Part shown: positions 9,487-26,400 of the stretch, in pieces
Position numbering within the stretch: position 1 is the stretch's first letter
How the letters are laid out: the number at the start of each line of letters is the position of its first letter
Source: Candidatus Hodarchaeota archaeon
Lineage (GTDB): Archaea > Asgardarchaeota > Lokiarchaeia > Sigyniarchaeales > SOKP01
DNA length: 64,000 nt
Reading direction: 5' to 3'
NCBI GenBank assembly: GCA_048886685.1
Contig: JBHLKM010000009.1
Span: forward strand, 107,229 to 171,228
Translations under genes and position numbers: made by a program
The notes under the pieces: model-generated
What the model was told of the DNA's origin: nothing
Database searches by the model: none
The model's input: the letters and a program-made list of their open reading frames with translations, nothing else

Positions 9487-10038
9487 TTATAATTCTGCTG
9501 ATAGAGTTTTGAATTTTTTATACAAGGCCTCAATAATTGCGTTAAATGCCTCAATAACGCCATTCCCCGTTTTAGCTGACGTTATATAATACCCAAGAAA
9601 ATTATATTTACTTACTATTTCTTGGATATCAGAATCATCAATGTTATCTTCATCAACTAAATCTACTTTATTTGCGAACAATACAATAGGAATATTTCCA
9701 CAATATTTTAAAATTTCTTTATACCAATCAGGAATATGATTGAAACTCTCTTCACCAAGTTTGTTTTCTTCTAGACTATATACAATTATGGCTGCTTCAC
9801 TTCTCTTATAAAAAGAAGGTCGTAAGAAATGAAAGGTATCTTGTCCTGCTATATCCCAAAATTGTAATTTAATTTTGTCCCCATCTATTTCTTTAACATA
9901 CGTTGATAGTTGAGCCCCAATTGTCTTAATATATTCCTTTTCAAAGTAACTATGTGTAAATTTTTGAATTAATGAAGTTTTACCTACCTGCCCGTCACCA
10001 ATCACGGTGATTTTGAAAATAAAGCTTATATCATTCAT
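9487..10038 (-). CDS. Rab/Ras-like small GTPase
   Basis: G1 GDGQVGKT, G3 WDIAGQ, G4 NKVD, G5 SAK; no C-terminal prenylation motif. Confidence 0.92.
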   Translation of the reverse strand: MNDISFIFKITVIGDGQVGKTSLIQKFTHSYFEKEYIKTIGAQLSTYVKEIDGDKIKLQFWDIAGQDTFHFLRPSFYKRSEAAIIVYSLEENKLGEESFNHIPDWYKEILKYCGNIPIVLFANKVDLVDEDNIDDSDIQEIVSKYNFLGYYITSAKTGNGVIEAFNAIIEALYKKFKTLSAEL

Positions 10039-10217
10039 AGAATTTTGAATAAAGATCAGAATAATAAGTTAAATAAATCTTATATGATGTAAGATTAGAT
10101 TTATTATGTTATAAAATTTTTGAATATTCTCGTCAATAACCTAAAAGAATCTAGAACAATCAATAATTATCAAAGCTCAGTAATTCTTCTTTAAACTGAA
10201 TAATCAATCTTTTAATT

Positions 10218-10775
10218 CTACAGATTATCAGATAATGATTTAAACTTATCATATAACTCATCTATCAATGTATTAAATGCTGTAAGTACGCCCTTCCCTG
10301 TTTTTGCTGATGTTAAGTAGTACCCCATAAAATTATTCTCTTCAACTATTTTTTTGATAGCTGAATGGTCTATAGTATCTTCGTCAACCAGATCAACTTT
10401 ATTTGCAAATACAACTATCGGAACATCTCCACAATGTTTTACAATTTCCTCATGCCAAGTTGATATGGATTTAAAACTCTCGTCCCCAAGTTCAGTTTCC
10501 TCAAGACTATATACAATAATAGCAGCTTTACTGTTTTTAAAAAAAGAGGGACGTAAAAAGTGAAAAGTATCCTGCCCCGCTATGTCCCAAAATAATAGTC
10601 TGATTTTATCTCCTTTTATTTCCTTATTATACACTGAAAACTGTGCTCCTATTGTCTTAACATAATCCTTCTTAAATGATCCTTGAGTGAACTTCTTAAT
10701 AAGGGAAGTTTTTCCAACCATTCCATCACCGATAACCGTTACTTTGAATCGAAACCTACGTCCTTCCTCACTCAT
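10218..10775 (-). CDS. Rab/Ras-like small GTPase (tandem paralog)
   Basis: GDGMVGKT, WDIAGQ, NKVD, SAK. Confidence 0.92.
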   Translation of the reverse strand: MSEEGRRFRFKVTVIGDGMVGKTSLIKKFTQGSFKKDYVKTIGAQFSVYNKEIKGDKIRLLFWDIAGQDTFHFLRPSFFKNSKAAIIVYSLEETELGDESFKSISTWHEEIVKHCGDVPIVVFANKVDLVDEDTIDHSAIKKIVEENNFMGYYLTSAKTGKGVLTAFNTLIDELYDKFKSLSDNL

Positions 10776-10922
10776 AGAATCTTAAAAGAAATAATTTGTG
10801 TATTTATTCTAGTTAAAAAATTATATTTAAACTAAGATCAGTTATTTTTTAATATAAAATTTTGGTTTCTGATTAAAATAAACTGAAAAATAGACAATTT
10901 TATATTTAAATTAAAAAAAATT

Positions 10923-10964
10923 AAAAAAAAGTTTGGATTATTTGAGATCTTTTAATCCAAACTT
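10923..10964 (-). terminator. hairpin + T-run terminator
   Basis: Perfect 12-bp inverted repeat AAGTTTGGATTA (10929-10940) / TAATCCAAACTT (10953-10964), followed by a T-run on the minus strand. Confidence 0.55.
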
Positions 10965-11045
10965 GAATTTTTTTGGATTTAAAAGATAATCTCCTATCGA
11001 ATATTTCCAATCATCTTTTTTCTTCTTTTTCTTCGTTTTTTTCAA
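10938..11045 (-). CDS. putative basic micropeptide (LKKTKKKKKKDDWKYSIGDYLLNPKKFKFGLKDLK)
   Basis: Manual translation; GGAGG upstream but only a TTG or ACG start; LNPKKF and terminal KDLK resemble neighbouring micro-ORFs. Confidence 0.35.
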   Translation of the reverse strand: MKKTKKKKKKDDWKYSIGDYLLNPKKFKFGLKDLK

Positions 11046-11071
11046 CCTCCATTAAATTTTTTGATAACTAA

Positions 11072-11164
11072 TTATTTTATTATACGATTAATAAACTCCT
11101 TATGTTCTTCTAAACCGTTCTTTATCTTAATCCTCTCAATTCTCTCTAATTTTTTGTTTTTCAT
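11072..11164 (-). CDS. putative 30-aa micropeptide (MKNKKLERIERIKIKNGLEEHKEFINRIIK)
   Basis: Manual translation; ATG preceded by a GGGAGGG SD-like motif. Confidence 0.45.
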   Translation of the reverse strand: MKNKKLERIERIKIKNGLEEHKEFINRIIK

Positions 11165-11200
11165 TATTTTTCGCCCTCCCCTTATCATTTAGATATATAT

Positions 11201-11236
11201 CAAAAAAATGGAGGGGGAAAATTTAGGTCCCCCTCC
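11201..11236 (-). terminator. GC-rich hairpin + T-run (terminator/attenuator)
   Basis: 9-bp stem GGAGGGGGA (11210-11218) / TCCCCCTCC (11228-11236), followed by ATTTTTTTG on the minus strand. Confidence 0.55.
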
Positions 11237-11316
11237 CCCTGATTTTATTTCTCCCTGACTTTTCTACTTCGGTTTGTCGGATGAATTGAATCAGCGTGAA
11301 GATGACAGAATTAATT

Positions 11317-11580
11317 TTAATAATTTCCGAAATTCCTGTAATTTATACTTCTTCTGATGTTCTCTATAGGAATTTGTTCTTCTAAATACTTAGGATTATA
11401 TTTAGCTTTCTTCAATAATTTCAATAAAGCTTTTTTAACTGGTTTCTCCTCTGCTTTTACTCGAACTATTGTATAATCTTCTTCAATAGCAGGGAGCTCT
11501 TCTAATATAATTACATCTTCTAATACCTCTAGTTCCTTTTTCTTAATTAAAACTTGGACCATTTTATAAACCACCTCCAA
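11317..11580 (-). CDS. small hypothetical protein, NP[RK]Y[FL]EE family
   Basis: YNPKYLEEQIPI motif shared with two neighbours; GGAGGTGG SD suggests the true start is the second Met (MVQVL). Confidence 0.65.
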   Translation of the reverse strand: MEVVYKMVQVLIKKKELEVLEDVIILEELPAIEEDYTIVRVKAEEKPVKKALLKLLKKAKYNPKYLEEQIPIENIRRSINYRNFGNY

Positions 11581-11604
11581 TTCATGTTTCTAAACTATTG
11601 TAAA

Positions 11605-11868
11605 TTAAAAAACCCTAAAAATATTGAATTTGGAATTAGCAATTATATCTGAGGTATATAATTTTTCTTTTGTATCTTTTAGTGGAATTACTTCTTCGAA
11701 GTATCTAGGATTTTGATTCTTGAATAATTCAAATAGTTCAATTTGTTTTTTAATTTGCTCAATATCTTTTTGTTCTTCTTTAGAAGTTTTTCCCGAAAGA
11801 ACTATATATAGATCTTTAAGTTCAATAATGGTATCTTCATTTACTATTACTTGTCTCATTTTTTTCAC
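11605..11868 (-). CDS. small hypothetical protein, NP[RK]Y[FL]EE family
   Basis: QNPRYFEEVIPLKDTKEKL...SKFNIFRVF. Confidence 0.65.
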   Translation of the reverse strand: MKKMRQVIVNEDTIIELKDLYIVLSGKTSKEEQKDIEQIKKQIELFELFKNQNPRYFEEVIPLKDTKEKLYTSDIIANSKFNIFRVF

Positions 11869-11884
11869 ACTCTTTTTTTCCTAT

Positions 11885-11943
11885 AAGATTACTTAGATCA
11901 AGGTTTAATTAATAGTTTGATTTCGCAAAGTTCAAATGGAATT
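11885..11943 (-). promoter_or_regulatory. conserved promoter block + degenerate palindromic operator upstream of the small-ORF operon
   Basis: 11885-11918 matches 12759-12792 at 29/34 nt; AAGTT-CAAATG-GAATT at 11928-11943 lies at the same spacing as in the other copies. Confidence 0.55.
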
Positions 11944-12085
11944 TAAGACTTGTTTTAGACTTTTATCAACTTTTCTTAAAAAAAATCTCTGTTTAATATG
12001 AGTTTAAATCTAGGTAGTTGCTATAGATTTTAGAGCCTATGAGTAGAATGGTCTAGCAATCGGTAAAGGTTCAACTCATTAGGTT

Positions 12086-12502
12086 TTAAAAATTTCTTGA
12101 CCAATATTCCTCGTAAGTTAAATTGTTGGGTATATCTCTATTACCCCTATAAATTCGAGGAACAGCTTTAGAATCTATTAATATCTTGATGAATTTATAG
12201 TTAGCTAAATGATCGAGAGCATCCTTAAATTGATAATAAGACTTATAATCTTGTACTTTACCCGTGATATCTATCAAATCATAATCAAAGAGTAATTGAT
12301 CAATATTCGGAAATTGATCCTGAAGCCAATTGTCTCTACAATCTTCAATAATTTTTATAGCATATTCAAAGTTGCTAGAGTGAGTTTTTGAAGAAAAACT
12401 TGTCATATTCGCATAAATGATAAAATACTTTGTTTTTAAGGATTTCAAAAACAGAAAATTTTTATATGAATTAGTCGAATTACGAAAAGTAAATCTAATC
12501 AC
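12086..12502 (-). CDS. hypothetical protein (real start probably the internal Met, MTSFSS)
   Basis: ORF only; the C-terminal ~106 aa looks protein-like. Confidence 0.5.
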   Translation of the reverse strand: MIRFTFRNSTNSYKNFLFLKSLKTKYFIIYANMTSFSSKTHSSNFEYAIKIIEDCRDNWLQDQFPNIDQLLFDYDLIDITGKVQDYKSYYQFKDALDHLANYKFIKILIDSKAVPRIYRGNRDIPNNLTYEEYWSRNF

Positions 12503-12550
12503 TAAAATAAATACATAAAAATGAGAGATTAAAAAAATTATTTTATACTT

Positions 12551-12727
12551 CTAAAAAACACTAAAGAGATCATATTTAGATCCTACACAAGCATGAATTT
12601 GGTCTTTCGCTTCTTTTAGATGGATAGCTTCCTCAAAATATCTTGGGTTTAAATCTCCAAGAAGTGCTTGATTTTCTTCAACTTTAGGTCGTTTCATTAT
12701 CATTATTTTTTGATAAGTTTGGGTCAT
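12551..12727 (-). CDS. 58-aa small protein, NP[RK]Y[FL]EE family (below ORF-track cutoff)
   Basis: Manual translation MTQTYQKIMIMKRPKVEENQALLGDLNPRYFEEAIHLKEAKDQIHACVGSKYDLFSVF; clearly homologous to the C-terminus of 11605..11868. Confidence 0.7.
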   Translation of the reverse strand: MTQTYQKIMIMKRPKVEENQALLGDLNPRYFEEAIHLKEAKDQIHACVGSKYDLFSVF

Positions 12728-12758
12728 TTTTTATAAACACTTTTTCGGTTTTTTTATT

Positions 12759-12817
12759 AAGAATAATTAGAGCAAGGTTTAATATATAGTTTAATTCTAT
12801 GAACTCTGAGTGGAGTC
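12759..12817 (-). promoter_or_regulatory. TATA-like promoter block + operator AACTC-TGAGTG-GAGTC
   Basis: Minus-strand AAACTATATATTAAA; palindrome at 12802-12817. Confidence 0.6.
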
Positions 12818-12893
12818 TTAGATTCTATTTAGATCATCCCTTAATTCTCCAGAATTTTACATTTTATACGTCCAGATATAATGTTCATTTTTG

Positions 12894-12909
12894 AACTCTA
12901 ATTAGAGTT
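12894..12909. promoter_or_regulatory. perfect palindromic operator AACTC-TAATTA-GAGTT upstream of wHTH-TPR regulator 1
   Basis: Perfect 16-bp palindrome just upstream of the TATA-like AAAATATATAAA. Confidence 0.6.
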
Positions 12910-12982
12910 TGGATCAAAATATATAAATAAACCCTTTTCATATTATTATTATAAGTAATATTTATTGGTAATTGGATGAATT

Positions 12983-15505
12983 TTGGTTCCATCTTGTAAT
13001 TATCCCCCTGACGAGATTTTAAATCCTGTAATTGGTAAGCCTAATTATGAGTATATTATTCTGTGGATATTGAGTAATAATGAAATATGCTCATGGGCAG
13101 ATTTAAAAGAAAAAGTGAATAGATCAACGCTTTCTAATTATTTACGTGACCTTAAGCGTAATGGATATGTTTTAAAAAGTGATTTCAATCAATATAAAAT
13201 CACATCTAAAGGAAGGGAAAGATATTACGAATTAGGACAAGCCAAGAAGGGAGGAAGGAACTTAAGTTTTCCTCCTAAGGTAATTCTCGAAAAAAGGAAT
13301 TATGACCATACGATCCTTTGGATGACCTATAACAATAATTACTGTAAGTGGGCAGATTTTCTTGAAGAACCTCTTTCTATTAATCAATCTTCCTTATCAA
13401 AGAATATGAATAAATTAATGGAAAAAAATTTTGTAATAAAAGAAGAAAAGGAATATAGAATTACTCGATTGGGAAAATCGGAATATTCTAAAATGCTAAC
13501 CTATTATGATCTAGACAGACAGTCGATTTTAGAAGAAGAAAGCAAAAGAATTTCTGATTTAACACAAAAAACACTAAATTTCTTCGCAAAATTTGAAATT
13601 ATTGAAAGAGATATTCAATTTCGATTCCTAAATAGTGTTCTAAGGTTAGATTATGAAAAAATTAAAACCGTTTTAAGAGAGGAGGAGGATTTTCATAAAA
13701 TACTGCTGTTCCTTTCAATTAATCATCCAAATGATTATCCTAAATATGTATCACCTGAAGAATTCTCTGAAAAATATGGAATTAAAAAAACTACTCTTGA
13801 TTATTATATTGATGAAATTGTAGAGAATCAAATTTTTCCAATAAAATTTTTTAAATTGGTGGTGCTCCCAAATAAATTCTATTATTTCCAATCAGATGAA
13901 AAAGTCGAGATGATGCTTAGGATTATTACAGAGGAGCATATTACAAAGTTTACCTATCTAAATAAGCTTTTTGAGGGCAAATCAGATTTAATTCTCCCTC
14001 TGAATATGAGTTCTACGGTAAACGCTATTTTAGAAGAAGCTTGCCAAAATGTATTTGATGAAGGATTAAAAAATTCATTAAGAAAATTATTACCTGAATA
14101 TATCAATTACTTAGCATACAAAATCGAAAAAGAAAAGAAGTTGGTTGGTGTTTCTGATAAATTGGAAGGAATTATTTGGCAGAACATTCCTGAAATAATT
14201 CAATCAGACATTTACAAAACTTCTCAATATCAATTTATAAGTGAGAGTGAAATGAATTATTATTTAGATACCTCAATATTAGAAATATTACAGCCTTACC
14301 TAGCTTTCTGGTTTAAGCAGGAAGAGTTAAATTTAAAAATCCAAGAGTACTTAAAATCGAAAGAATATGATAAGGCTTTAAAATTGGATGAATTAGGTAA
14401 GGTTTTTACTTATTCTAAATCGAAGATAAAGAATTTGGATCTCATTATTGTTAAAGGGATTATTCTTTGCCATTTGAATAGAAATAGAGAATCGATAGAT
14501 TTTCTAATGGATAATGTAGATTTATCTATTATTAATAAAGAAGATGAGATATATGCACCATATCTTTTTGTGTTAGCTTTTTCATATATGACTCTTGGAG
14601 ATATTAAAAACGCTCTGAATATGGCATATAAAGCAATAGAAATATTTCCTAAAATACCTCTTTCTCATATTTTAAAGGGACTTGTACTTGGTTATAATAG
14701 TATTTATAATTTCGATGCAGAAAAGGCAGATAAAGAAAATGGGATAAGTGATATAGATAAAGCTATTAATTTAGAATCAAATAAATTCAACAAAGCAAGA
14801 TATTATCAGTTAAAGAGCCAAATCTTATTAGAATTGAATAACTATGAAAATGCTTTAGAATCGATTGATAACGCACTTGAATTAAATCCTAAAACTCTAG
14901 ATTTGTATAATTCTAAATTTAGGATTTTGAATTATTTTGATAAGTTCTATGAAATAATAGCTATATTGGATAAATTACTAATTGATTTTCCTGAGTGGGA
15001 AAAGAATCTTAAAATTAAAAAAATATACATGCTCAAAGAAATGAAAAATATTGAAGAAGGCCTAGAGATTATCAATGAATTAATCGAAAAATATCCTGAA
15101 GATAATAATCTTCTTCTTAATAAGATATATTGGTTACAATATTTAGATGAAAAAGAAGAGGTAATAACAACTATAGAGAAGCTTATACAAGAAAATCCCA
15201 AGGTAGGAATATACCGTGATACTTATGGAGAGATTTTAATGAATTTTGAGGAATATGAAAAAGCCATAAAGGAATTCTTAAAAACGATAGAATTAGCTAG
15301 TGATGATTGGTATATTAATCAAACCTATATAAAGTTGGGAATATGTTATAAGGAACTTGAAGACTATGATTTAGCAACTGAATATCTTATGAAAGGTCAA
15401 GAATATACAAACAAATGCTTTTGTGATCTTGAAACAAAAAGAAGATGGATGGCAATTGTTAGTCTCTATTTGGCAGAAATTGAACAACTAGAAGCCGATT
15501 TTTAA
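12983..15505 (+). CDS. tandem winged-HTH + C-terminal TPR protein (putative transcriptional regulator) 1
   Basis: Two internal repeats (ILW..NN..C.W.D...S.LS..L..L...G/N.V....Y.IT..G) of MarR/ArsR-like wHTH type; C-terminal TPR motifs (ALESIDNALELNPK, YRDTYGEIL, AIKEFLKTIEL). Confidence 0.75.
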   Translation: MVPSCNYPPDEILNPVIGKPNYEYIILWILSNNEICSWADLKEKVNRSTLSNYLRDLKRNGYVLKSDFNQYKITSKGRERYYELGQAKKGGRNLSFPPKVILEKRNYDHTILWMTYNNNYCKWADFLEEPLSINQSSLSKNMNKLMEKNFVIKEEKEYRITRLGKSEYSKMLTYYDLDRQSILEEESKRISDLTQKTLNFFAKFEIIERDIQFRFLNSVLRLDYEKIKTVLREEEDFHKILLFLSINHPNDYPKYVSPEEFSEKYGIKKTTLDYYIDEIVENQIFPIKFFKLVVLPNKFYYFQSDEKVEMMLRIITEEHITKFTYLNKLFEGKSDLILPLNMSSTVNAILEEACQNVFDEGLKNSLRKLLPEYINYLAYKIEKEKKLVGVSDKLEGIIWQNIPEIIQSDIYKTSQYQFISESEMNYYLDTSILEILQPYLAFWFKQEELNLKIQEYLKSKEYDKALKLDELGKVFTYSKSKIKNLDLIIVKGIILCHLNRNRESIDFLMDNVDLSIINKEDEIYAPYLFVLAFSYMTLGDIKNALNMAYKAIEIFPKIPLSHILKGLVLGYNSIYNFDAEKADKENGISDIDKAINLESNKFNKARYYQLKSQILLELNNYENALESIDNALELNPKTLDLYNSKFRILNYFDKFYEIIAILDKLLIDFPEWEKNLKIKKIYMLKEMKNIEEGLEIINELIEKYPEDNNLLLNKIYWLQYLDEKEEVITTIEKLIQENPKVGIYRDTYGEILMNFEEYEKAIKEFLKTIELASDDWYINQTYIKLGICYKELEDYDLATEYLMKGQEYTNKCFCDLETKRRWMAIVSLYLAEIEQLEADF

Positions 15506-15513
15506 AAAAACAC

Positions 15514-16056
15514 TTAGGTTAAAACCTTGGATTTATTATACAATTCATTAATAATAATATTAAAAGCCTCATGAACACCTTGCCCTGTTTTTGCTGAAGT
15601 TAAGTAATATCCTAAAAAACCTTGTTCTTCAACAATTTTTTGAATCGGAGTATCATCCAAATTATCTTCATCAATTAAGTCGACTTTATTAGCAAAAAGA
15701 ATTATTGGGATTTCTCCACAGAATTTTTTAATATTCTCATACCAATTGGTTATATGCTCAAAACTTCGTTTACCTAACTCATTTTCCTCAAGACTATAAA
15801 CAATAATTGCTGCTCCGCTTTCCTTATAAAATGAAGGTCGTAGAAATAGGAAATCATCTTGACCGGCTATATCCCAGAAGATCAATCGAATCTCATCTCC
15901 CTCTATTTCTTTTTCATATTTAGAGAATTGGGCACCTATGGTCTTAACATAATCTTTCTCAAATGAACTCTGAGTAAACTGTTTAATCAATGAAGTTTTA
16001 CCTACTTGTCCATCTCCTATGACGGAAATTTTAAATCGAAATTGTGCAGCAGTCAT
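15514..16056 (-). CDS. Rab/Ras-like small GTPase (third paralog)
   Basis: GDGQVGKT, WDIAGQ, NKVD, SAK; shares the YSLEExxLG insertion with the 9487 and 10218 genes. Confidence 0.92.
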   Translation of the reverse strand: MTAAQFRFKISVIGDGQVGKTSLIKQFTQSSFEKDYVKTIGAQFSKYEKEIEGDEIRLIFWDIAGQDDFLFLRPSFYKESGAAIIVYSLEENELGKRSFEHITNWYENIKKFCGEIPIILFANKVDLIDEDNLDDTPIQKIVEEQGFLGYYLTSAKTGQGVHEAFNIIINELYNKSKVLT

Positions 16057-16279
16057 TTACTTTTTTGGAGAAATCACTATTTCATGTTTTATTTAATAGT
16101 AGATTAGGTTTTTTGTAATTTAAAATTTTAGTTATTAAAAAAAACCTAGTTGATACAAATTTAGTGATTAAATATTAAAAGATTTGAATTTCATTTAATG
16201 AAATTAGTTAAATATCAACTAAAATACAATTAAAATTAAAGATTTGATAAAAATTAAAAAAGAAGAATAAAAAAAGAAT

Positions 16280-16360
16280 TTATTTACGTAAATCCTTAAA
16301 AGCCCAATTTTGGAAATGATTATTTATATTTATTAATCCTTTATTCGCATTTTTTCTCAT
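16280..16360 (-). CDS. putative 26-aa micropeptide (MRKNANKGLININNHFQNWAFKDLRK)
   Basis: Manual translation; GAGGG SD-like motif; divergent from regulator 2 and downstream of a copy of the operator. Confidence 0.45.
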   Translation of the reverse strand: MRKNANKGLININNHFQNWAFKDLRK

Positions 16361-16417
16361 TTTTTTTCCCTCAATAATAGGTTCTTATTAATTTTAATAT
16401 AGATTGACAACTATATT

Positions 16418-16448
16418 TAGTTTAACTTCGTAAACTCCATGTGAAGTT
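16418..16448 (-). promoter_or_regulatory. operator copy TAGTTT-N9-AACTC-CATGTG-AAGTT
   Basis: Same spacing as the 11913-11943 and 12787-12817 copies. Confidence 0.55.
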
Positions 16449-16613
16449 CGAATTTAACGCGAAGGGCTTCTCAGTTTTGTCAGAATTATTTAAAATGAAT
16501 ATGTATTAATATCTTAAAGCTCTTTAATTTTAATCTTGTTGAATGAAGTATCCATACCTTTTTCCCCAATTCATCCAATTCCTCTTCACTAAGTATTTAG
16601 TTTTTACTGCATG

Positions 16614-16629
16614 AACTTTAACCAAAGTT
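16614..16629. promoter_or_regulatory. operator copy AACTT-TAACCA-AAGTT upstream of regulator 2
   Basis: Inverted repeat with a 6-bp spacer, about 90 nt before the start, the same position as 12894-12909 relative to regulator 1. Confidence 0.55.
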
Positions 16630-16716
16630 ATATAGTATTAAAAACTATTATACTATAAGAAGACTATAAGAATTTAGTATGCTAAACATTAAGAAAACTC
16701 TTTCAAAAATGATATC

Positions 16717-18621
16717 ATGAGTCATATAAATTATCCACCTAAAGAAATTTATAATCCTCCCGTATTAGAGAAAAAAAATTTTGAGCTTATCATTCTTTGG
16801 ATGCTATATAATAATGAAGAATGCGAGTGGGCTAATTTTACTCAAGAACCCCTTGAACTTCGGTTATCTACTCTCTCAAAATATCTTTCATTATTAAAGG
16901 GGAAGGGATATGCAGAGAATATTTCAAGAGGGCTTTATAAAATTACTTCAGAAGGCAAAAAGAGATATCTTGAATTATCACAGGCAAAGGAAAAAGAAAG
17001 AACTCTAAGCTATCCCCCTGCTATCATTACAAGAAGAAGAAATTATGATCATTGGATTCTTTGGATGGTTTATAACAATAACTACTGCAAATGGTCGGAT
17101 TTTATTGAAGAAAATTCACCTGTAAGAATTAATCAATCATCCTTATCTAAAAATATGAATATATTAATCGATAAAGGATTTATAGAAAAAGAAGAGAAGA
17201 AATATAGAATCACCCGATCAGGTAAAGTGGAGTATTCTAGAGTATTACAAGAATATGATTTAGATAGACAATCAATTTTGGAGGAAGAAAGTAAGCGAAT
17301 TGAAGAGATTACAATGAAGACTATAAAATTTTTCAATAAATATGAAATTGAAAATAAGGACATACAATTTAGATTACTCAACAATATGCTGAAATTGGAT
17401 TATACCAGGGTTGAAGCAATGCTCACAGATGAACAAGATTTTAACAAAATCTTACTTTTTATCTCAATTAATCATCCAAGTCAATATCCTAATTATATTT
17501 CTGTAGATGGTTTCTCGAAAATTTATGGAATTAAAGATTCAAAATTGGATTATTATGTTGATGAAATTATTGAAAATGAGATTTTTCCCGTTAAATTTTT
17601 TAAAATAATTGTACAACCAGATGTCCATTATTATTTCCAAGAGAATGAAAGATTAGAAATAATGCTTCGAGCAATCACAGAAGATCATATCACCAAATTC
17701 ACATATTTAAATAAATTATTTTCGAGACCATTTGACATAAGAAGTACAGTGGATGATATATTAGAAGATATTTGTGAGGTATTATTTCACGAGGATTTAA
17801 AAGAATCCTTACACAAATTTTTACCAAAATATATTAATTATTTAGCCTATAAAATTGAAGCTAAAGTTGAGCTGAAAGAGACTTATGATAAATTAGAAGG
17901 AATTATTTGGCACAATATGATAGACATATTTGAAACAAGAAATATTGAAGAATTACAAGAAGATTACAGAGTAGAAATCAAGAAAATTGATAAAAAGATT
18001 GAGTCAAATCCAGAGGACCTTGATTTATATAACTTAAAGATAAGAATTTTGATTTATTACAATCAATTCGATGAGGTACTGAGCTTATTAGATGAAATGT
18101 TAGAAATTTTCCCGAAAGATGAATTAGATGTAAAGATGAAAAAGGCATCTGTATTGAGAAGGATGCAAGATGTAAGTAAGGGTTTAGAAATAATTAATGA
18201 GTTAATTGAAAAATACCCTAAAAACAATGACCTTGTGAGTTATAAAGCTTATTGGCTTCAATATTTAGATCGAAAGGAAGAATCTCTCAGCATAATTCAT
18301 GATCTTGTTGAACTTATTCCTGAAAATGGAATGTACCATGACACTTATGGAGAAATTCTAATGTATTTTGAGGAAAATGAAAAAGCTATAAATGAATTCC
18401 TTAAAGCGATAGAATTAGCGGGTGATGAATGGTATATTCATCAAACCTATATTAAGCTAGGAATCTGTTATAAAGAAGTTCAACAATTGGAACGTGCGCT
18501 TGAGTACCTAACTAAAGGGAAGAAATTAACAGAAAAGATTTCAATTGACGCCGAAACTAAACAAAAATGGATCACAATTGCGAATCTCTTTCTTTTAGAA
18601 TTAGAGCAATTAGAAGAATAA
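16717..18621 (+). CDS. tandem winged-HTH + TPR protein 2 (paralog of 12983..15505, shorter TPR array)
   Basis: Extensive identity with regulator 1 (NYDH.ILW, INQSSLSKNMN, YDLDRQSILEEESKRI, DTYGEILM, QTYIKLGICYKE). Confidence 0.75.
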   Translation: MSHINYPPKEIYNPPVLEKKNFELIILWMLYNNEECEWANFTQEPLELRLSTLSKYLSLLKGKGYAENISRGLYKITSEGKKRYLELSQAKEKERTLSYPPAIITRRRNYDHWILWMVYNNNYCKWSDFIEENSPVRINQSSLSKNMNILIDKGFIEKEEKKYRITRSGKVEYSRVLQEYDLDRQSILEEESKRIEEITMKTIKFFNKYEIENKDIQFRLLNNMLKLDYTRVEAMLTDEQDFNKILLFISINHPSQYPNYISVDGFSKIYGIKDSKLDYYVDEIIENEIFPVKFFKIIVQPDVHYYFQENERLEIMLRAITEDHITKFTYLNKLFSRPFDIRSTVDDILEDICEVLFHEDLKESLHKFLPKYINYLAYKIEAKVELKETYDKLEGIIWHNMIDIFETRNIEELQEDYRVEIKKIDKKIESNPEDLDLYNLKIRILIYYNQFDEVLSLLDEMLEIFPKDELDVKMKKASVLRRMQDVSKGLEIINELIEKYPKNNDLVSYKAYWLQYLDRKEESLSIIHDLVELIPENGMYHDTYGEILMYFEENEKAINEFLKAIELAGDEWYIHQTYIKLGICYKEVQQLERALEYLTKGKKLTEKISIDAETKQKWITIANLFLLELEQLEE

Positions 18622-18687
18622 AGCACAAGGATTTTTGGTAACTTAACAGTAAACTTATCAAAATAATATAAAAAAAGGATAGAGACC

Positions 18688-20478
18688 CTAACTTTTTTCT
18701 ACTAATTGTTCTAACTCTTCGATTTTGTCAGATAGATAATTAATTCCTTTTTGCCAGAATGAAGCATCCTTTAAGTTGATACCAATTTCAGATAATATTT
18801 CTTCAGGTGTTAATGAACCTCCAACAGAAAGGAGTTTAATAAATTTTGGGACAAATTTTTCTTTTTGCTCAAGATATAATTGATATATTGAGATTACCAA
18901 CAGATTAGACATGTTATATGCATACACATAGAAAGGTACTTGTAAAAAATGGTGCACAACAAAACAGTAATTGGCGTAATCTTCTCTAATGTTACTAATA
19001 GAGTTGCCAAACATTAATTCCATTTCTCTAACAAAAGTATCTTTAATTTCTTCTGTTGAGGGTAATTTCTCCTCCAGTAAATTATGAATACTTTTTTCAA
19101 ACCTATAGAAAGCATTTTGTCTATGGGAAGTACTGAACTTTGATTCAATGAAATTACTTAACAAAGAAATCTTTTCTTCTCTCGATAAATTTGTATTCAT
19201 TAAATGGTCAAAAATTAAAATTTCATTGAAAATTGAGGCAATTTCAGCCATAACCAAAGAAATTCCTATATTTATGAAGTTTTGATTTTTTAAATTATAA
19301 TATGCGTGAAATGCATGGCCAAGTTCATGAGATAATGTTCTTAATGAATCGATTGTACCAGTAAAATTTACAAATACGAACGGATAATGCTTCAGTTTCC
19401 CATTGGAACAAAAGGCACCACGATTTTTTCCAATTCTGGGAGTGACATCAATATGATTAGATAAAACCATTCTTTCTATTATCTCTTTAAATTCTGGAAA
19501 AAATCTTTCATCAGCATCTTTAATAAGTTCTAAATTTTCCTTATAGGAATAATTTTTTGTTATTTGACCAATCGGGACATAAATATCCGACATATGGAGT
19601 TCAGGGAGATTTAAGATTTTTTTCTTTAAGTTGTAATATTTCTCCACGATAGAATAACTTTTTGTGGTTACTTCTCCTAAAATTTCAACACTCTCATCAC
19701 TAACTTCATTTTCGAGATTTCTTCGTGATATCGGTGTATTGAAATTCTTTTTTTTGCATTCTAAATCCCAGCTTTTCAAGGTATTATTAAAAGTATGAGT
19801 GAAAATCATTTCATACTCCTTATATTTGGAAACAATTGCACTTAAGGCTCTAAATCGAAGATCTTTATCCTGGTGGTACATAAAAGAAAAGACCTCTGCT
19901 TCAGTTAACTTCCTCATTTTTCCTTCTACTTCAAAATCGAAAATAAAACTGCTTTTTAATTCATTATAAAGTTTTATGAATGCTTTAGCACCTGTAATAT
20001 CTTTCATTAAAACTATTTGTTCTTCTTCTTCCGAAAGTTGATGTTTTTTTTTCAATCTGTTAAATTTGAGAGCATGAGAATAATTGATAAGTTCTGGAGC
20101 ATTTTTTAACTCGTTAAATTTGTGTTCTGAAATCAAATTCAATTCTAAATTAAAAAACAATAATTTTTCCTGAAATTTAGCTTTATAATCTTCTATCTTT
20201 GAGCGAAATGATTTTACATCATCATTTAATGAGTTAATTGAATATTCCAAACTTGAATAACGATCTAAGTAATATATTTGTTCAGATATTTGTTCATATT
20301 CCTTATACCATTCTAATAATTGCTTTGGAGTAAGTAAAGGATCCCTTATCTTTCCTTTGACTTTCTTATAAAAATTTTCGACTGACTTTTCTAATTCTTT
20401 AAGATCCTTATCAATTGAAGGATCATCAATGCTTTCGTAGAAGTCGGTTAAATCCCATTTAATGATTTCTTCTGCCAT
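18688..20478 (-). CDS. pepF: oligoendopeptidase F (peptidase M3B)
   Basis: WDL N-terminus, GAFC, HELGHAFH zinc motif, AEIAS, PFYVYAY. Confidence 0.88.
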   Translation of the reverse strand: MAEEIIKWDLTDFYESIDDPSIDKDLKELEKSVENFYKKVKGKIRDPLLTPKQLLEWYKEYEQISEQIYYLDRYSSLEYSINSLNDDVKSFRSKIEDYKAKFQEKLLFFNLELNLISEHKFNELKNAPELINYSHALKFNRLKKKHQLSEEEEQIVLMKDITGAKAFIKLYNELKSSFIFDFEVEGKMRKLTEAEVFSFMYHQDKDLRFRALSAIVSKYKEYEMIFTHTFNNTLKSWDLECKKKNFNTPISRRNLENEVSDESVEILGEVTTKSYSIVEKYYNLKKKILNLPELHMSDIYVPIGQITKNYSYKENLELIKDADERFFPEFKEIIERMVLSNHIDVTPRIGKNRGAFCSNGKLKHYPFVFVNFTGTIDSLRTLSHELGHAFHAYYNLKNQNFINIGISLVMAEIASIFNEILIFDHLMNTNLSREEKISLLSNFIESKFSTSHRQNAFYRFEKSIHNLLEEKLPSTEEIKDTFVREMELMFGNSISNIREDYANYCFVVHHFLQVPFYVYAYNMSNLLVISIYQLYLEQKEKFVPKFIKLLSVGGSLTPEEILSEIGINLKDASFWQKGINYLSDKIEELEQLVEKS

Positions 20479-22688: not shown

Positions 22689-23492
22689 TTAACTTGTTCT
22701 TATTGTTTTTACTAGATGAGAATCAAAGAAATCAATAAGATTTTCACACATTTGTTGAAAATGATTTTCATCTGTAAAGTTATGGTTAGCTCCATCAATT
22801 ATATCAATTTTTTTATTTTCAGATTGAACCTTATTGAAAAGTTGGTGAAAACCATGTTCTGGAAATAAGACATCCTTATTACCAGCGATTAAATAAAATG
22901 GTTTTAATAACTTATCAGCTAATCTAACAGGATTATATTGTCTCGTTTGTTCAGCATACTTTATTTTAAGATCGCCATCTGGAAATCGCATTTCTTTATT
23001 GCGCGTTAAAGCTTTTATGAAAAACTTAAACAAGGGATTTTTTGGTATAATTTCAGTATTAAAAACAGGGGAACGTATCGCAAGACATTGAACTCTTTTA
23101 TCTCTTACAGCATGGCAAAAAGCCATTGCACCTCCAAAACTTTCACCTAACAAGCCAATTCTAAGAGGATCTATTTCGGGATGATAGACTAATTGATTTA
23201 TCACTTGTTCAATATTAGCTTGAGCATCATAATAAGTAAATATCCCCGTACTACCTCTAACACCTTGATGATCATAAGTAAAATATGCTATATTATTATT
23301 AACAAAATGACATGCAAATCTCAGTTCATCTTCTTTAGGTGATTTTCCTGGCATTCCATTAACACGTATTACTAATGGGAAACAAGTGTTTTTAGAGTTT
23401 TCAGGCTCTATAATATCAGGTAAATACAGGATACTCTGTAGGATTTCAGTACGAACCTCAATTTCTATCATTTCCTTTCTCATTAGTATCAC
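22689..23492 (-). CDS. alpha/beta hydrolase, candidate stand-alone thioesterase of the megasynthase
   Basis: GESFGG nucleophile elbow, Asp (GNKD) and His (GANH); GTGA overlap with the megasynthase stop. Confidence 0.75.
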   Translation of the reverse strand: MILMRKEMIEIEVRTEILQSILYLPDIIEPENSKNTCFPLVIRVNGMPGKSPKEDELRFACHFVNNNIAYFTYDHQGVRGSTGIFTYYDAQANIEQVINQLVYHPEIDPLRIGLLGESFGGAMAFCHAVRDKRVQCLAIRSPVFNTEIIPKNPLFKFFIKALTRNKEMRFPDGDLKIKYAEQTRQYNPVRLADKLLKPFYLIAGNKDVLFPEHGFHQLFNKVQSENKKIDIIDGANHNFTDENHFQQMCENLIDFFDSHLVKTIRTS

Positions 23493-26400
23493 TGGATTAT
23501 TGGTTTGTTTTTAAAAGGTTTAATCTCACAGTACGAAAGAACATATTTTTCAGAAAATTCAACCCGTAATTGTAGATCTTTAAGATTTCTATTGATGTCT
23601 AACAAGTCATTTTTGGATTTTAAGGTAAATTTATTGTATTTTTTATTATATTTCAATTCAATGTCTCGGAAATTAATATTAAAGCCTTCCCCTATTGCTT
23701 TTGAGAAGGCTTCTTTCGCTGTCCAGTAGATTGTTCCCAGATAGGCATCGTCTAAAATAGTTTTTCTTTCTGATTCAGTAAATACCTCCTTATAGAATGA
23801 TGGGGATCGGGATTCAATTATCTCTAAATCAATGCCAACCAAATTTTTACTTATCATTGCTACTGAAAAATCATTGGAATGACTTATAGAAAGATTAAGT
23901 GGAATTATTTTATTCTCTTTGTTTGAGTAGTAATATGGCTTACCTTTTTCATCCTTTTGAATTTCAAAGTCATGATATGAACCATCAACAGCAATAATCC
24001 TACGATAACATTCTTTTGCGGCAATAATGCCAGAAAAATATTCAATTTTTCTTTTTATATTCCTAAAGCGCTTTGAGTTTTCTATCTCTGTTTCAGTCAG
24101 ATAAGTTTCAAAAAATTTCGGATTTATTTGATATAGATCTTTTAGTTTTGCAATAGGTAGAACTTGAATTTCGTTTTTAATTTTATTATTCTTTAGGTGG
24201 TAATACTCTTTTAAGGTAGTTAGATAATCAGAGAGGTTATTTGAGAGGTTTACTGTAATTTGTGCATGGATGATTTCTAGGTTTTCAATTTTCGCTATAA
24301 TTTCTTGATCTTCATCTAAAATTACCGAGTTATAATAAGATCTCTCCTCGTCTTTTTTTAAGAATTTAGCTACTATGTATTTTGGTCTTTGGTTTGATTT
24401 TATTTGAATAGAGGAGGCTTTTGAGGGAAGAGAGAGATGGTTATTTATGATGTAATCAAATAACGCTGCGGTTTGAAATACACATTCCATGGATAAGGGT
24501 TCAAATTGAAAATGATCCTCTTCCTCATTATTAATAATAGGAACTGTTGGAAGATCGATCTTTGTTACTATTTTTCCTTTCTCTAATTGAATAACTTCTT
24601 CTAGAACTTGAAATTTCTTCCCATGAAAGAAAAGCTCATAAATTTCAGTTTTATCAAGTAAAGGAATTAATGGATTTAAAATTAGATCTTTTTCCCATCT
24701 CATTTCTTTTACTAAATCATCGAACTGAGCATCGAAATGGTTTTTTATTAGTGGTTTTCCTTTTAGAACTGTGGGAAAAGTCTTTGATTGAAGTGATATC
24801 TTATTATTGGATTTATTAAATGTTAGTTCTACTTCTACTGACTTACCTACTGAAATTTTCAGGGGCGTGTGAAAATTAATATTTGAAATAGAGGTTAACA
24901 CCTTATCGAACACTCGATGGTAGAATTCTGCGAATGTTTCTAGAGCCATTACACCAGGAAATACAGGTTTTTTTTGAATTTGATGATCAAGAAGATATGT
25001 GTCGAATTCAGAATTTATGGTGTTAAAACCAATTATATATTCAGATTGATAATTTATTTTTTCTAACATAGGATATTCTTTTTTATCAATAACTTCCTCA
25101 ATATCAAGCATTTCCTCAAAGATCCCTAACTTCCCCGCAATTATATATTCCCCAGTGAAGTTGTTTAATACTAAATTGGTAAATATCTTTATACCAGTTA
25201 TTGAAGGAACAGGTGAAACTCCTGCTTGAGTAAGGATTTGTAAAGTGGAACCTTGAGTAGCCATACCAATATCTGCCCAAGCTGTCCAATCAAAAGTTAA
25301 AAATGGGATATTGCGTTGGTTGAATTCCCAAGCCATACGCGATAAATACGCATTAGCAAATGCATAATCAATTTGACCCTGATTCCCATAACGTCCAGCA
25401 ATTGAGGAAAAAGTTACAAAATATTTGACGTCTTGAATCTTTATATATTTGAGAATTTTTGAAAACCCTCCAACTTTAACATCAACAATTTTATGAGCCA
25501 TATTTAAATTTTTCTTCAAGAAACTTTTTGATTCTTCTATCCCAGCACCATGGATAACAACTGTTATCTGATTTTTAGTTTCTTCATTAATTGTTTGGAA
25601 GATGTTCTTCATTTTTTCATCATTAGTAACGTCTACTGCATAATATTGAACTGAAAGACCTTTTTTCTTCAAATTTTCGATATTACGAAGAGTATCTAAT
25701 TTGTCGAGGAATTTCTTCCATTCTCTGTTAATCATAACAGGAGTTACTTTCTCTAGTGTAGATTTCAATGACTTAACCAATTCTTCCTTTTTCTCACTCA
25801 ACATGTCCGGGGTGTATTGTAAATATTCTAAAAATGAATCATCGTACGGGCTTAATCCTAAAAGAATTAGTTGTGGTTTAGTATGGTTTGTTAATTCATC
25901 AATACAAGCAAAAGTTATTCCTTGTGCTCCTCCTGTAACCAATAATACATCTTCTTCTGTTATCGAAGAATAATTCAATTTTGGGAGCTTTTCTACTTTT
26001 TTTCTTAATAATGTATAACGTACATTTTCCCTGTAGGCTATTTCCTCAAGTTTATCCCAACTCAAGAACTCTTGAGTAATCTGTCCTAAATTCATTGAAG
26101 AAATAAGCTTGATCGGAATCTGAAATTCGCGATTGATTGTTTTTATAAAAGCACCTATACTAGAAGCAAGGGGATTAGCTCCTTGTTTCCAACCGAAAGT
26201 AGTATCTGGAGAAATAACTAAGATTTTTTCTAATATTGATAAATTTAAAGATTGAAAAATGAGAAAAAGACTGTCGAAAATGTTTAAACTATCATTAATG
26301 GTATATTGACTATTATCTGGAATAACCAATATGAGTATCTTGAAATCTATATCAAATGGAAATTCACTATTATTATTATTTAGATCTTTAACTAAATTTT

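Follow-up and report, generated by a model that had tools for sequence, protein, structure and literature searches.

A winged-helix/TPR regulator family of Lokiarchaeia with a predicted operator and a probable microprotein regulon

Described systems and how the locus compares

RRNPP receptors carry one Xre-type HTH, and Ras-superfamily GTPases that act through TPR effectors are represented by MglA, which binds SgmX, and Rac, which binds p67phox. RRNPP(A) systems are recognised by a propeptide of 10-100 aa, a TPR-containing receptor of 250-500 aa, adjacency of the two genes, and export of the peptide through Sec or, as a short hydrophobic peptide, through PptAB (PMC10075063); leaderless RRNPPA peptides have also been mentioned (10.1101/2023.09.19.558401). 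Archaeal activators typically bind upstream of BRE (PMC5512572).

The locus described here resembles the RRNPP(A) systems found in Bacillota and in their phages (Rgg/SHP, ComR/ComS, PlcR/PapR, NprR/NprX, PrgX, AimR/AimP) in its regulators, with an N-terminal DNA-binding domain and a C-terminal TPR region, in the small ORF beside the regulator gene, in an operator upstream of the peptide promoter and in paralog expansion, and its conserved small ORFs (20-90 aa) fall inside the propeptide size range. It differs in having three MarR/PadR-like winged helices rather than one Xre-type HTH, regulators of 634-990 aa rather than 250-500 aa, peptides that lack a Sec- or SHP-type hydrophobic segment, a single operator shared by many unlike peptide families and by orphan copies, and a TPR region whose sequence does not change along with the peptide. 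Among the best 50 Foldseek matches and the best 60 profile matches listed there was no RRNPP chain. Membership of the RRNPP group, to which the earlier note drew an analogy, fails on the grounds of export signal, receptor size, winged-helix type and absent receptor-peptide pairing.

Compared with the archaeal activators Ptr2 and EarA (PMC5512572), the predicted site lies likewise immediately upstream of BRE/TATA at a fixed spacing and the DNA-binding domain is of the winged-helix class, but the protein is a much larger, multi-domain one with a TPR array, and its regulon is dominated by microproteins. Literature searches found no paper on Asgard RRNPP systems, on this regulator family or on such an Asgard regulon.

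The features, numbered within the window (the whole stretch of 64,000 nucleotides that was analysed), are these.

9487..10038, minus strand: Rab-like small GTPase G0 (183 aa), a tandem paralog just outside the locus; Pfam Ras 1.7e-42
10218..10775, minus strand: Rab-like small GTPase G1 (185 aa); Pfam Ras 5e-41
10938..11036, minus strand: 32-codon family-A microprotein, its ACG start codon preceded by a GGAGG-type ribosome site; homologs, pN/pS 0.38
11072..11164, minus strand: 30-aa basic microprotein; 24/30 identical in G017, pN/pS 0.23
11214..11233, minus strand: terminator-like G+C hairpin then T run, behind the 81-aa gene; pattern match only
11317..11562, minus strand: 81-aa microprotein resembling family C, with an NPxY motif; at least 8 relatives have an ortholog, pN/pS 0.35
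11605..11859, minus strand: family-C microprotein, 84 aa, NPRYFEE motif; pN/pS 0.57
11927..11944, minus strand: predicted operator palindrome of the 84-aa gene, whose BRE/TATA-like element lies 8 nt downstream; 21.9 bits, matrix from other genomes
12086..12406, minus strand: conserved 106-aa protein inserted into the cluster and not assigned to any known family; 14 homologs, most of them 106-108 aa long, pN/pS 0.20
12551..12727, minus strand: family-C microprotein, 58 aa, NPRYFEE motif; three operator-bearing orphan paralogs (C7, C10, C11)
12801..12818, minus strand: R1-type predicted operator palindrome of the 58-aa gene, upstream of its BRE/TATA; 30.6 bits
12893..12910, minus strand: predicted operator palindrome nearest R1, its own TATA degenerate; 22.1 bits
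12983..15505, plus strand: regulator R1 (840 aa), winged helices, helical core and extended TPR array; Pfam HTH_45, HTH_34 and TPR
15514..16056, minus strand: Rab-like small GTPase G2 (180 aa), convergent on R1; Pfam Ras 9.7e-41
16280..16360, minus strand: family-B microprotein, 26 aa; 31-member alignment, pN/pS 0.39
16432..16449, minus strand: R2-type predicted operator palindrome of the 26-aa gene, upstream of its BRE/TATA; 34.9 bits
16613..16630, minus strand: degenerate predicted operator nearest R2, spacer one base longer; from the palindrome sampler, at a conserved position, below threshold in the fixed-spacing scan
16717..18621, plus strand: regulator R2 (634 aa); AlphaFold model pLDDT 83, pTM 0.43
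18688..20478, minus strand: M3B oligoendopeptidase, PepF-like (596 aa), accessory, with no operator; Pfam M3 and M3_N

Two winged-helix/TPR paralogs, R1 and R2, are thus divergent from micro-ORFs and adjoin Rab-like GTPases and an M3B peptidase that is convergent on R2. The earlier note had described a repeated module of GTPase, micro-ORF and regulator with a convergent pepF, and all of these parts are located where it placed them, but the two modules are unequal. Module 1, with small ORFs at 10938-12727, holds five micro-ORFs (30, 32, 58, 81 and 84 codons) and the conserved 106-aa gene; module 2 holds a single micro-ORF. The ORF at 10921-11010, with which the claimed region began, is an overlapping frame, and the conserved ORF there is that at 10938-11036. 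An Rfam search of 10000-17000 gave no match (E up to 1), and a sigma-70 promoter scan was at chance level (13 observed, 13.0 expected).

The regulator family

In the AlphaFold model of R2, winged helices at residues 22-88, 110-179 and 263-308 alternate with helical regions at 183-251 and 312-405, and a TPR solenoid follows at 410-633; the arrangement of these domains is unsure because the pTM is only 0.43. Two tandem winged helices had been proposed for each regulator, and the model has three. The presence of TPRs is given both by Pfam matches and by the modelled solenoid. R1 and R2 are 45% identical across 646 aligned columns. The first winged helix of R2 resembles MarR/PadR folds (Z 11.2, rmsd 2.2 over 76 residues), a Foldseek search with the N-terminal 320 residues returned no match at E up to 0.001, and the ESM Atlas returned for R2 just generic TPR clusters, under 0.9. 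An ESCRT-II-like role without DNA binding was considered for the tandem winged helices and rejected, given that the best folds are MarR/PadR and that the operator covaries with the recognition helix. R1 and R2 probably represent a lineage-specific family of winged-helix transcription activators, which occurs in one family of Lokiarchaeia.

TPR-bearing paralogs measure 625-990 aa, and paralogs of about 450 aa stop before the TPR. Direct adjacency of regulator and micro-ORF was seen for R1, R2 and the 840-990-aa clades, whereas another large regulator clade faces secreted or membrane genes instead.

A predicted operator and its regulon

De novo discovery in 70 intergenic regions gave an 18-bp palindrome with the consensus GAACTT-N6-AAGTTC and clade-specific variants, its information being 14.9 and that of shuffles 7.1-7.5. 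Most copies lie 70-95 nt from the start of the regulator gene; the site at 12893-12910 occupies this family-wide conserved position, about 75-90 nt from the start. The palindrome with a TATA element, called solely from its sequence and its distance to the start codon, occurs in 22 of 23 other regulator-bearing congeners (1-15 copies each) and in none of 16 genomes of other families, a distribution that matches the spread of the regulator; the reversed pattern gave 4 matches across all congeners. The earlier note had called for a survey of homologs for divergent small ORFs and an operator. In held-out genera the site is present at 24 of 28 distinct regulators, as against 2 in the wrong orientation, and 16 face an ORF of about 100 codons or fewer. 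The 8-nt spacing to BRE/TATA is kept in 22/23 congeners and 24/28 held-out loci. The genomes compared are kin, and all such counts therefore overstate independence.

The operator variant shifts with the first recognition helix across five regulator clades. This covariation, together with the co-distribution, leads us to predict both binding and activation: the regulator in all likelihood binds the palindrome, and activation is the likely outcome rather than repression, with transcription stimulated from the bound site, we infer, via TBP/TFB. Operator type also sorts with peptide family, since R1-type operators head 12 family-C genes and 1 family-B gene, and R2-type operators 32 of family B and 7 of family A. 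Four small genes in the window (81, 30, 32 and 106 codons) have no operator of their own, and there is none in front of GTPase G1. Attenuation of the GTPase by a leader peptide was rejected: peptide copies occur as orphans with no GTPase, and a conserved upstream element of its own precedes the GTPase (10802-10868, just upstream of G1 and conserved in relatives).

Scanning this genome with a matrix trained without it (cut-off 20 bits or more) placed sites at 14 promoters, against 0-1 in block shuffles. Eleven of the 14 head ORFs of 87 codons or fewer, and 6 of these eleven lie away from any regulator. About a third of the extra sites head larger genes, many with a different spacer that may belong to another factor; we take the genes under these, from their N-termini, to be an aldehyde:ferredoxin oxidoreductase, an aldo-keto reductase or flavodoxin-like proteins. 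MFS transporters lie under the operator or behind peptides in some loci.

The micro-ORFs hold up as genuine genes: they are syntenic in relatives and under purifying selection, with pooled pN/pS of 0.23-0.57, 1 of 19 pairs above 1, and 51% of differences at third codon positions in 25 pairs picked on DNA identity alone. These values rule out chance frames, and the peptides are very probably translated. Among 12 aligned family-A homologs a P and the C-terminal GxKDL are invariant. The ACG start of the 32-codon ORF is ATG in the relative G017, and is not an assembly error, because contigs of sequencing runs X2 and X3, which belong to one study with the likely source sample, carry the same letters. 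Elsewhere than in the window, the 30-aa microprotein was seen solely in G017 among the other loci compared. Family B has a basic N-terminus, an aliphatic strand ending in N and a variable tail; the 26-aa protein has two orphan paralogs (on C2 and C5), and a Pfam search with 31 family-B peptides gave isolated weak matches and no family common to the members. Family C is by inspection acidic and polar. A homolog of the 81-aa microprotein is divergent from the C5 regulator paralog, and the ESM Atlas gave no credible match for this protein.

The absence of an obvious hydrophobic signal sequence, pointed out earlier, was upheld by a hydropathy proxy: none of 50 family-A and -B peptides has an 8-residue window above 2.5, and their mean GRAVY values are -0.87 and -0.52. 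Export, maturation and re-import of the peptides, as in RRNPP quorum sensing, would fit the basic N-termini and variable tails of family B, the transporters at some loci and the precedent of leaderless RRNPPA peptides. It is nevertheless very unlikely given these hydropathies, the lack of pherotype-like pairing with the TPR tree, and the acidic rather than signal-like extensions of the longer family-A forms, which are proteins of 75-94 aa from another genus that end in the family-A motif. Leaderless antimicrobial peptides, toxins or modified-peptide precursors under one activator are another reading, prompted by short, cationic (net +3 to +5), diversified products in tandem arrays, but a highly improbable one: the peptides are too hydrophilic to be membrane-active, the recurrent neighbours included no recognised modifying-enzyme or immunity gene, family C is acidic in part and family B lacks a common Pfam family.

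With operator-headed microprotein genes found genome-wide, the peptides are therefore best read as regulon outputs, a reading that is well supported; that they act inside the cell is reasonably likely. A parallel is the condition-induced microprotein sP26 of Methanosarcina mazei (10.1101/2020.05.06.080432), likewise of 23-30 aa and expressed from its own promoter, where activator sites may lie upstream of BRE. Intracellular action on a larger protein is established for sP26 and would be expected here; sP26 comes from one leaderless gene, in contrast to the many families with ribosome sites that share an operator here, and no homology is claimed.

Candidate inputs to the TPR domain

The explanation that we prefer (probability about 0.62) is an activator family that drives a microprotein regulon and uses its TPR as a protein-input domain. 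A regulator dimer would bind the 18-bp palindrome 8 nt upstream of BRE/TATA and switch on a regulon largely of 20-90-aa proteins, adjoining the regulator and scattered through the genome. The microproteins would stay in the cytoplasm, most likely as short docking modulators of other proteins. The TPR would take its input from a conserved protein partner rather than read variable peptides, with the neighbouring Rab-like GTPase clade as the best candidate, and the M3B peptidase, an accessory neighbour, may clear peptides.

Whether the small proteins are ligands or outputs of the regulators, as the earlier note had it, divides accordingly: the activator-position operators and the genome-wide set favour outputs, and three tests lean against one-to-one receptor-peptide pairing. 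First, among peptides counted under the R2 operator type in this genome, the sole R2-clade regulator found faces three dissimilar family-B peptides and family A. Second, a regulator's place in the TPR tree does not predict its peptide type. Third, peptide and non-peptide clades share the same conserved TPR motifs, and 20 paralogs that keep them face secreted or membrane genes. These observations, with the existence of TPR-less paralogs and the finding of family A in 9 of 21 genomes of genus g14 but in none of g13 or g15, both regulator-bearing, make intracellular peptide feedback rather unlikely. By that account a microprotein, most plausibly one with the family-A or -C motif, would bind the TPR groove and switch the activator, with its lifetime set by the peptidase, as in Rgg/SHP or ComR/ComS without export. 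The anatomy fits (an HTH and TPR protein, a divergent peptide gene, an operator between), family A is strongly conserved and docking-motif-like in ending longer proteins of another genus, and a conserved ligand would suit a conserved pocket.

The peptidase bears on the same account. It is a class M3B oligoendopeptidase by its domains, HExxH at residue 384 and a third zinc ligand near 412, yet scores below the curated cut-off of the pepF equivalog TIGR00181 (301.5 against 490.55 bits); the best model is TIGR02290 (485.6 against 561.7 bits). In the two peptide clades, 10/13 and 10/14 regulators have an ortholog no more than 5 kb away, largely at shared loci, against 0/33 of the others. The adjacency, suspected earlier to be chance, is conserved within the genus, but this reflects one inherited locus, and most regulator-bearing genomes of other genera yielded no ortholog. 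Of 21 g14 genomes 4 have it, 3 of these with no regulator within flanks of up to 1.5 kb, and none in g13 or g15 does; a core role was rejected on these counts.

The GTPases are Ras-superfamily, Asgard Rab-like proteins by their G1, G3, G4 and G5 motifs (intact also in G0, which is 70% identical to G1 and G2) and Pfam Ras matches, but not eukaryote-type Rabs, because the C-terminal prenylation cysteine is absent. On the linkage proposed earlier for checking, 11/13, 14/14 and 7/18 regulators of three TPR clades, both peptide and non-peptide, have a member of the GTPase clade no more than 5 kb away, and in two single-contig genomes 4 of 8 and 2 of 5 copies are near a regulator, against 0.21 and 0.08 expected. 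A separate TPR protein family often sits between peptides and GTPase.

On this evidence transcription could be gated by a GTP-state GTPase binding the regulator TPR and coupling a signal to the microprotein regulon, a tentative proposal that is compatible with the preferred explanation and would fill its missing TPR-partner step. The invariant C-terminal TPR motifs, the G2 clade's expansion (2-11 copies per congener, 0-2 in other families), the lack of a lipid-anchor cysteine and an operator that directly heads a GTPase in G003 all argue for it. Against it, half of the clade lies far from any regulator, none was seen near 10 regulators of 840-990 aa (8 with short flanks), 2 of 5 TPR-less regulators also have a GTPase nearby, family f2 has relatives but yielded no regulator, and the intervening TPR family could be the true partner. 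As TPR ligand, then, the GTPase is possible and a peptide somewhat less so. As in MglA-SgmX and Rac-p67phox, a Ras-superfamily GTPase goes with a TPR protein, here tied to it genomically; here the TPR protein is a probable transcription factor, and the GTPase its candidate partner.

The analysis yields a regulator family and a probable operator with clade-specific variants. Operator plus TATA serves as an objective caller for dozens of unannotated 20-90-aa genes in Lokiarchaeia, and one clade of the many Asgard small GTPases, proteins whose roles bear on eukaryote origins, gains a specific candidate partner. We put forward, tentatively, an Asgard-specific circuit whose input would be a Rab-like GTPase and/or a conserved microprotein motif, docking on the TPR of a multi-winged-helix activator and so switching a microprotein programme genome-wide; such a direct link from GTPase or peptide to transcription is not known to have been described in archaea. 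If a peptide or GTPase does gate the activator, the system would amount to a GTPase-to-transcription switch or to an archaeal analogue, arisen by convergence, of RRNPP sensing.

Regulators and their modules

Both modules described in the earlier note, each with a GTPase, micro-ORFs and a divergent regulator, were found in the window, together with the convergent M3B peptidase (the pepF of that note). The features referred to here are:

10938-11036 (-): family-A micro-ORF
12086-12406 (-): 106-aa protein, conserved (14 homologs) but not assignable to any known family; among the genomes examined, only two have it as an insert in the micro-ORF cluster
12801-12818 (-): operator palindrome of R1 type
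12983-15505 (+): R1, 840-aa winged-helix/TPR regulator of module 1
15514-16056 (-): G2, GTPase of module 2
16432-16449 (-): operator palindrome of R2 type, in front of the 26-codon ORF
16717-18621 (+): R2, 634-aa paralog of R1, module 2
18688-20478 (-): M3B peptidase
23489-34060 (-): 3523-aa multi-domain fatty-acid/polyketide-synthase-like protein adjoining acetyl-CoA carboxylase subunits (domains assigned by eye)

The small genes of module 1 are ORFs of 58, 84, 81, 30 and 32 codons plus the 106-aa orphan gene; module 2 has a single ORF of 26 codons. R1 and R2 share 45% identity. In the predicted structure of R2 (pLDDT 83, pTM 0.43), residues 410-633 form a TPR solenoid, and the rest comprises three winged helices and a helical core. 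MarR and PadR folds match the first winged helix (structure comparison, Z about 11), and among the matches listed in fold and profile searches the TPR part matched generic solenoids only.

The source genome of the window has 4.4 Mb and 31% G+C. An N-terminal query detected the regulator family in 43 of 53 genomes of one taxonomic family and gave no match in the other 196 genomes of the phylum searched; no regulator was found with the query in family f2, and a full-length query, which gave 2-13 matches per congener, added two in one genome of a further taxonomic family. Named homologs are labelled mostly Promethearchaeota or Lokiarchaeia. A profile search returned 201 representatives at 50% identity, and all ten that were scanned are TPR or LRR fusions. 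The two-winged-helix unit is also present in two leucine-rich-repeat proteins, P0319 and P0345, where it is C-terminal.

Microproteins and a dispersed operator

Sequence comparison indicates that the micro-ORFs are genes. Those of module 1 lie in synteny in a relative (G017), and further genomes hold homologs of most of them. Pooled pN/pS was 0.23-0.57, values biased downward by protein-guided alignment, with one pair above 1; third codon positions hold 51% of the differences in 25 equal-length pairs picked on DNA identity alone. Three groups recur: family A (24-32 aa; core N/H-P-x-x-Y/F, C-terminal GxKDL), family B (20-30 aa; basic start, aliphatic strand with terminal N, variable tail) and family C (57-87 aa; NPRYFEE-type motif). 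The window family-A gene has ACG in place of ATG at its start (11034-11036, -), in letter-for-letter agreement with contigs from sequencing runs of the same study; either the codon serves as a weak start or the gene has begun to decay. CxxC...CxxC zinc-finger microproteins of 31-46 aa follow peptides beside 985-aa regulators at L041, L056, L064 and L066.

A palindrome sampler run on 70 intergenic regions returned GAACTT-N6-AAGTTC, with an information of 14.9 vs about 7.3 in shuffles. Its distance from the regulator start is in most cases 70-95 nt, and a AAACTATATA element facing the small gene follows 8 nt downstream of it. Using a matrix trained without the window's genome and a threshold of at least 20 bits, 14 sites were found in that genome, against 0-1 in shuffles. 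Eleven head ORFs of at most 87 codons, one of which lacks a canonical start; six of these eleven lie apart from any regulator. Of the other three sites, two precede larger genes and one has no ORF of its own. The pattern recurs in 22 of 23 other congeners and in none of 16 genomes of other taxonomic families. The linked sORFs and operator for which the earlier note proposed to search also appeared in held-out genera, where 24 of 28 distinct regulators have the operator and for 16 the facing gene is a small ORF of one of these kinds.

Across five regulator clades the first recognition helix and the operator variant change together, while the second helix is nearly constant. R1-type sites head family C in 12/13 cases and R2-type sites family A or B in 39/39, in part because the promoter was duplicated together with the gene. 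Sites of archaeal activators are typically upstream of BRE (PMC5512572). We infer that the R1/R2-family regulators are activators and the microproteins their outputs; such an activator regulon, resembling the bacterial peptide-sensing RRNPP receptors in layout only, would best explain the data (probability roughly 0.6). Of the two roles that the earlier note suggested for the small proteins, ligands or outputs, the second is the better supported.

A further 91 sites include 45 that head ORFs of at most 100 codons and 28 in front of larger genes; in many of these 28 cases the spacer differs. The differing 8-nt spacer marks a second operator class (L077, L079, L082, L087, L090, L092, L094, L117, L122, L124, L129, L135, L142). 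The genes behind it we take to be aldehyde:ferredoxin oxidoreductase, aldo-keto reductase and flavodoxin-like genes, and their sites possibly belong to another factor.

In the window's genome (G000), an operator of 24 bits directly behind a TPR-less regulator paralog (contig C11, about 419-760, +) heads an ORF of 84 aa that is ubiquitin-like and has a terminal GG; this ORF is convergent on genes whose products resemble, by inspection, E2 (191 aa), E1/ThiF (297 aa) and JAB (182 aa) proteins. Several genomes have, behind the operator, a protein of 127-138 aa that contains two CxxC pairs (G000 C14:51029, +; L022, L097, L153), and in three genomes the protein at this place has 262-270 aa and an H box like that of histidine kinases, assigned by eye (L126, L130, L137).

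Candidate ligands and partners

RRNPP membership has been tested by five criteria: small peptide size, TPR, adjacency, export signal and receptor size (PMC10075063). Small peptides, a TPR receptor and gene adjacency are present here; receptor size differs, and the peptides lack a hydrophobic signal, as the earlier note had cautioned. In another genus (g14) the family-A motif ends acidic proteins of 75-94 aa, so short family A reads as the motif on its own, not as a precursor made up of signal and pheromone. An exported pheromone is very improbable.

Indirect tests also lean against one-to-one pairing of receptor and peptide, since under R2-type operators the window's genome has family A and three family-B peptides, with 27-42% identity to the copy in the window, but a single R2-clade regulator, since first-position peptide types are scattered over the TPR tree, and since 20 paralogs facing secreted or membrane genes keep the conserved TPR motifs unchanged but for one consensus difference. 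That an intracellular peptide switches the regulator is rather unlikely, although a ligand of conserved sequence, for example the family A/C motif, would be compatible with these results.

The GTPase linkage raised in the earlier note was examined clade by clade. A member of one GTPase clade was located no more than 5 kb from R2-clade (11/13), R1-clade (14/14), non-peptide (7/18) and TPR-less (2/5) regulators and from 0/10 long ones, many regulators having short flanks; by these counts the GTPase tracks the regulator family, not the peptides. Where the genome is a single contig (two genomes), 4 of 8 and 2 of 5 copies are that near to a regulator (expected 0.21 and 0.08). The clade is the best candidate for a conserved TPR partner. 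GTPase input to the regulator, compatible with the other readings, is favoured by proximity in peptide and non-peptide clades but not by the long regulators, and is a tentative proposal. A large TPR-like family (about 280-700 aa; L031, L051, L065, L017, L052, L033) often lies between operator-headed genes and the GTPase.

An M3B ortholog (68-78%) is present in 15 of the 24 congeners listed, and in 12 of these 15 it is convergent on a regulator 3' end, of the R1 clade in some and the R2 clade in others; the remaining neighbours in the window (mutase, carboxylase) are seldom conserved. Since this adjacency is one inherited locus, the scan of the window's genome (threshold 20 bits) placed no operator before the gene, another M3 paralog occurs widely, the window's genome included, and the ortholog was not found in most regulator-bearing genomes of other genera, a functional link is doubtful: the convergence seen in the earlier note holds, and pepF is probably accessory to the circuit.

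The regulator/microprotein system is real and conserved, and apparently undescribed in the literature. New here are the limits set on a pepF link, the covariation of helix and operator, the dispersed regulon, and the tests that lean against cognate pairing.
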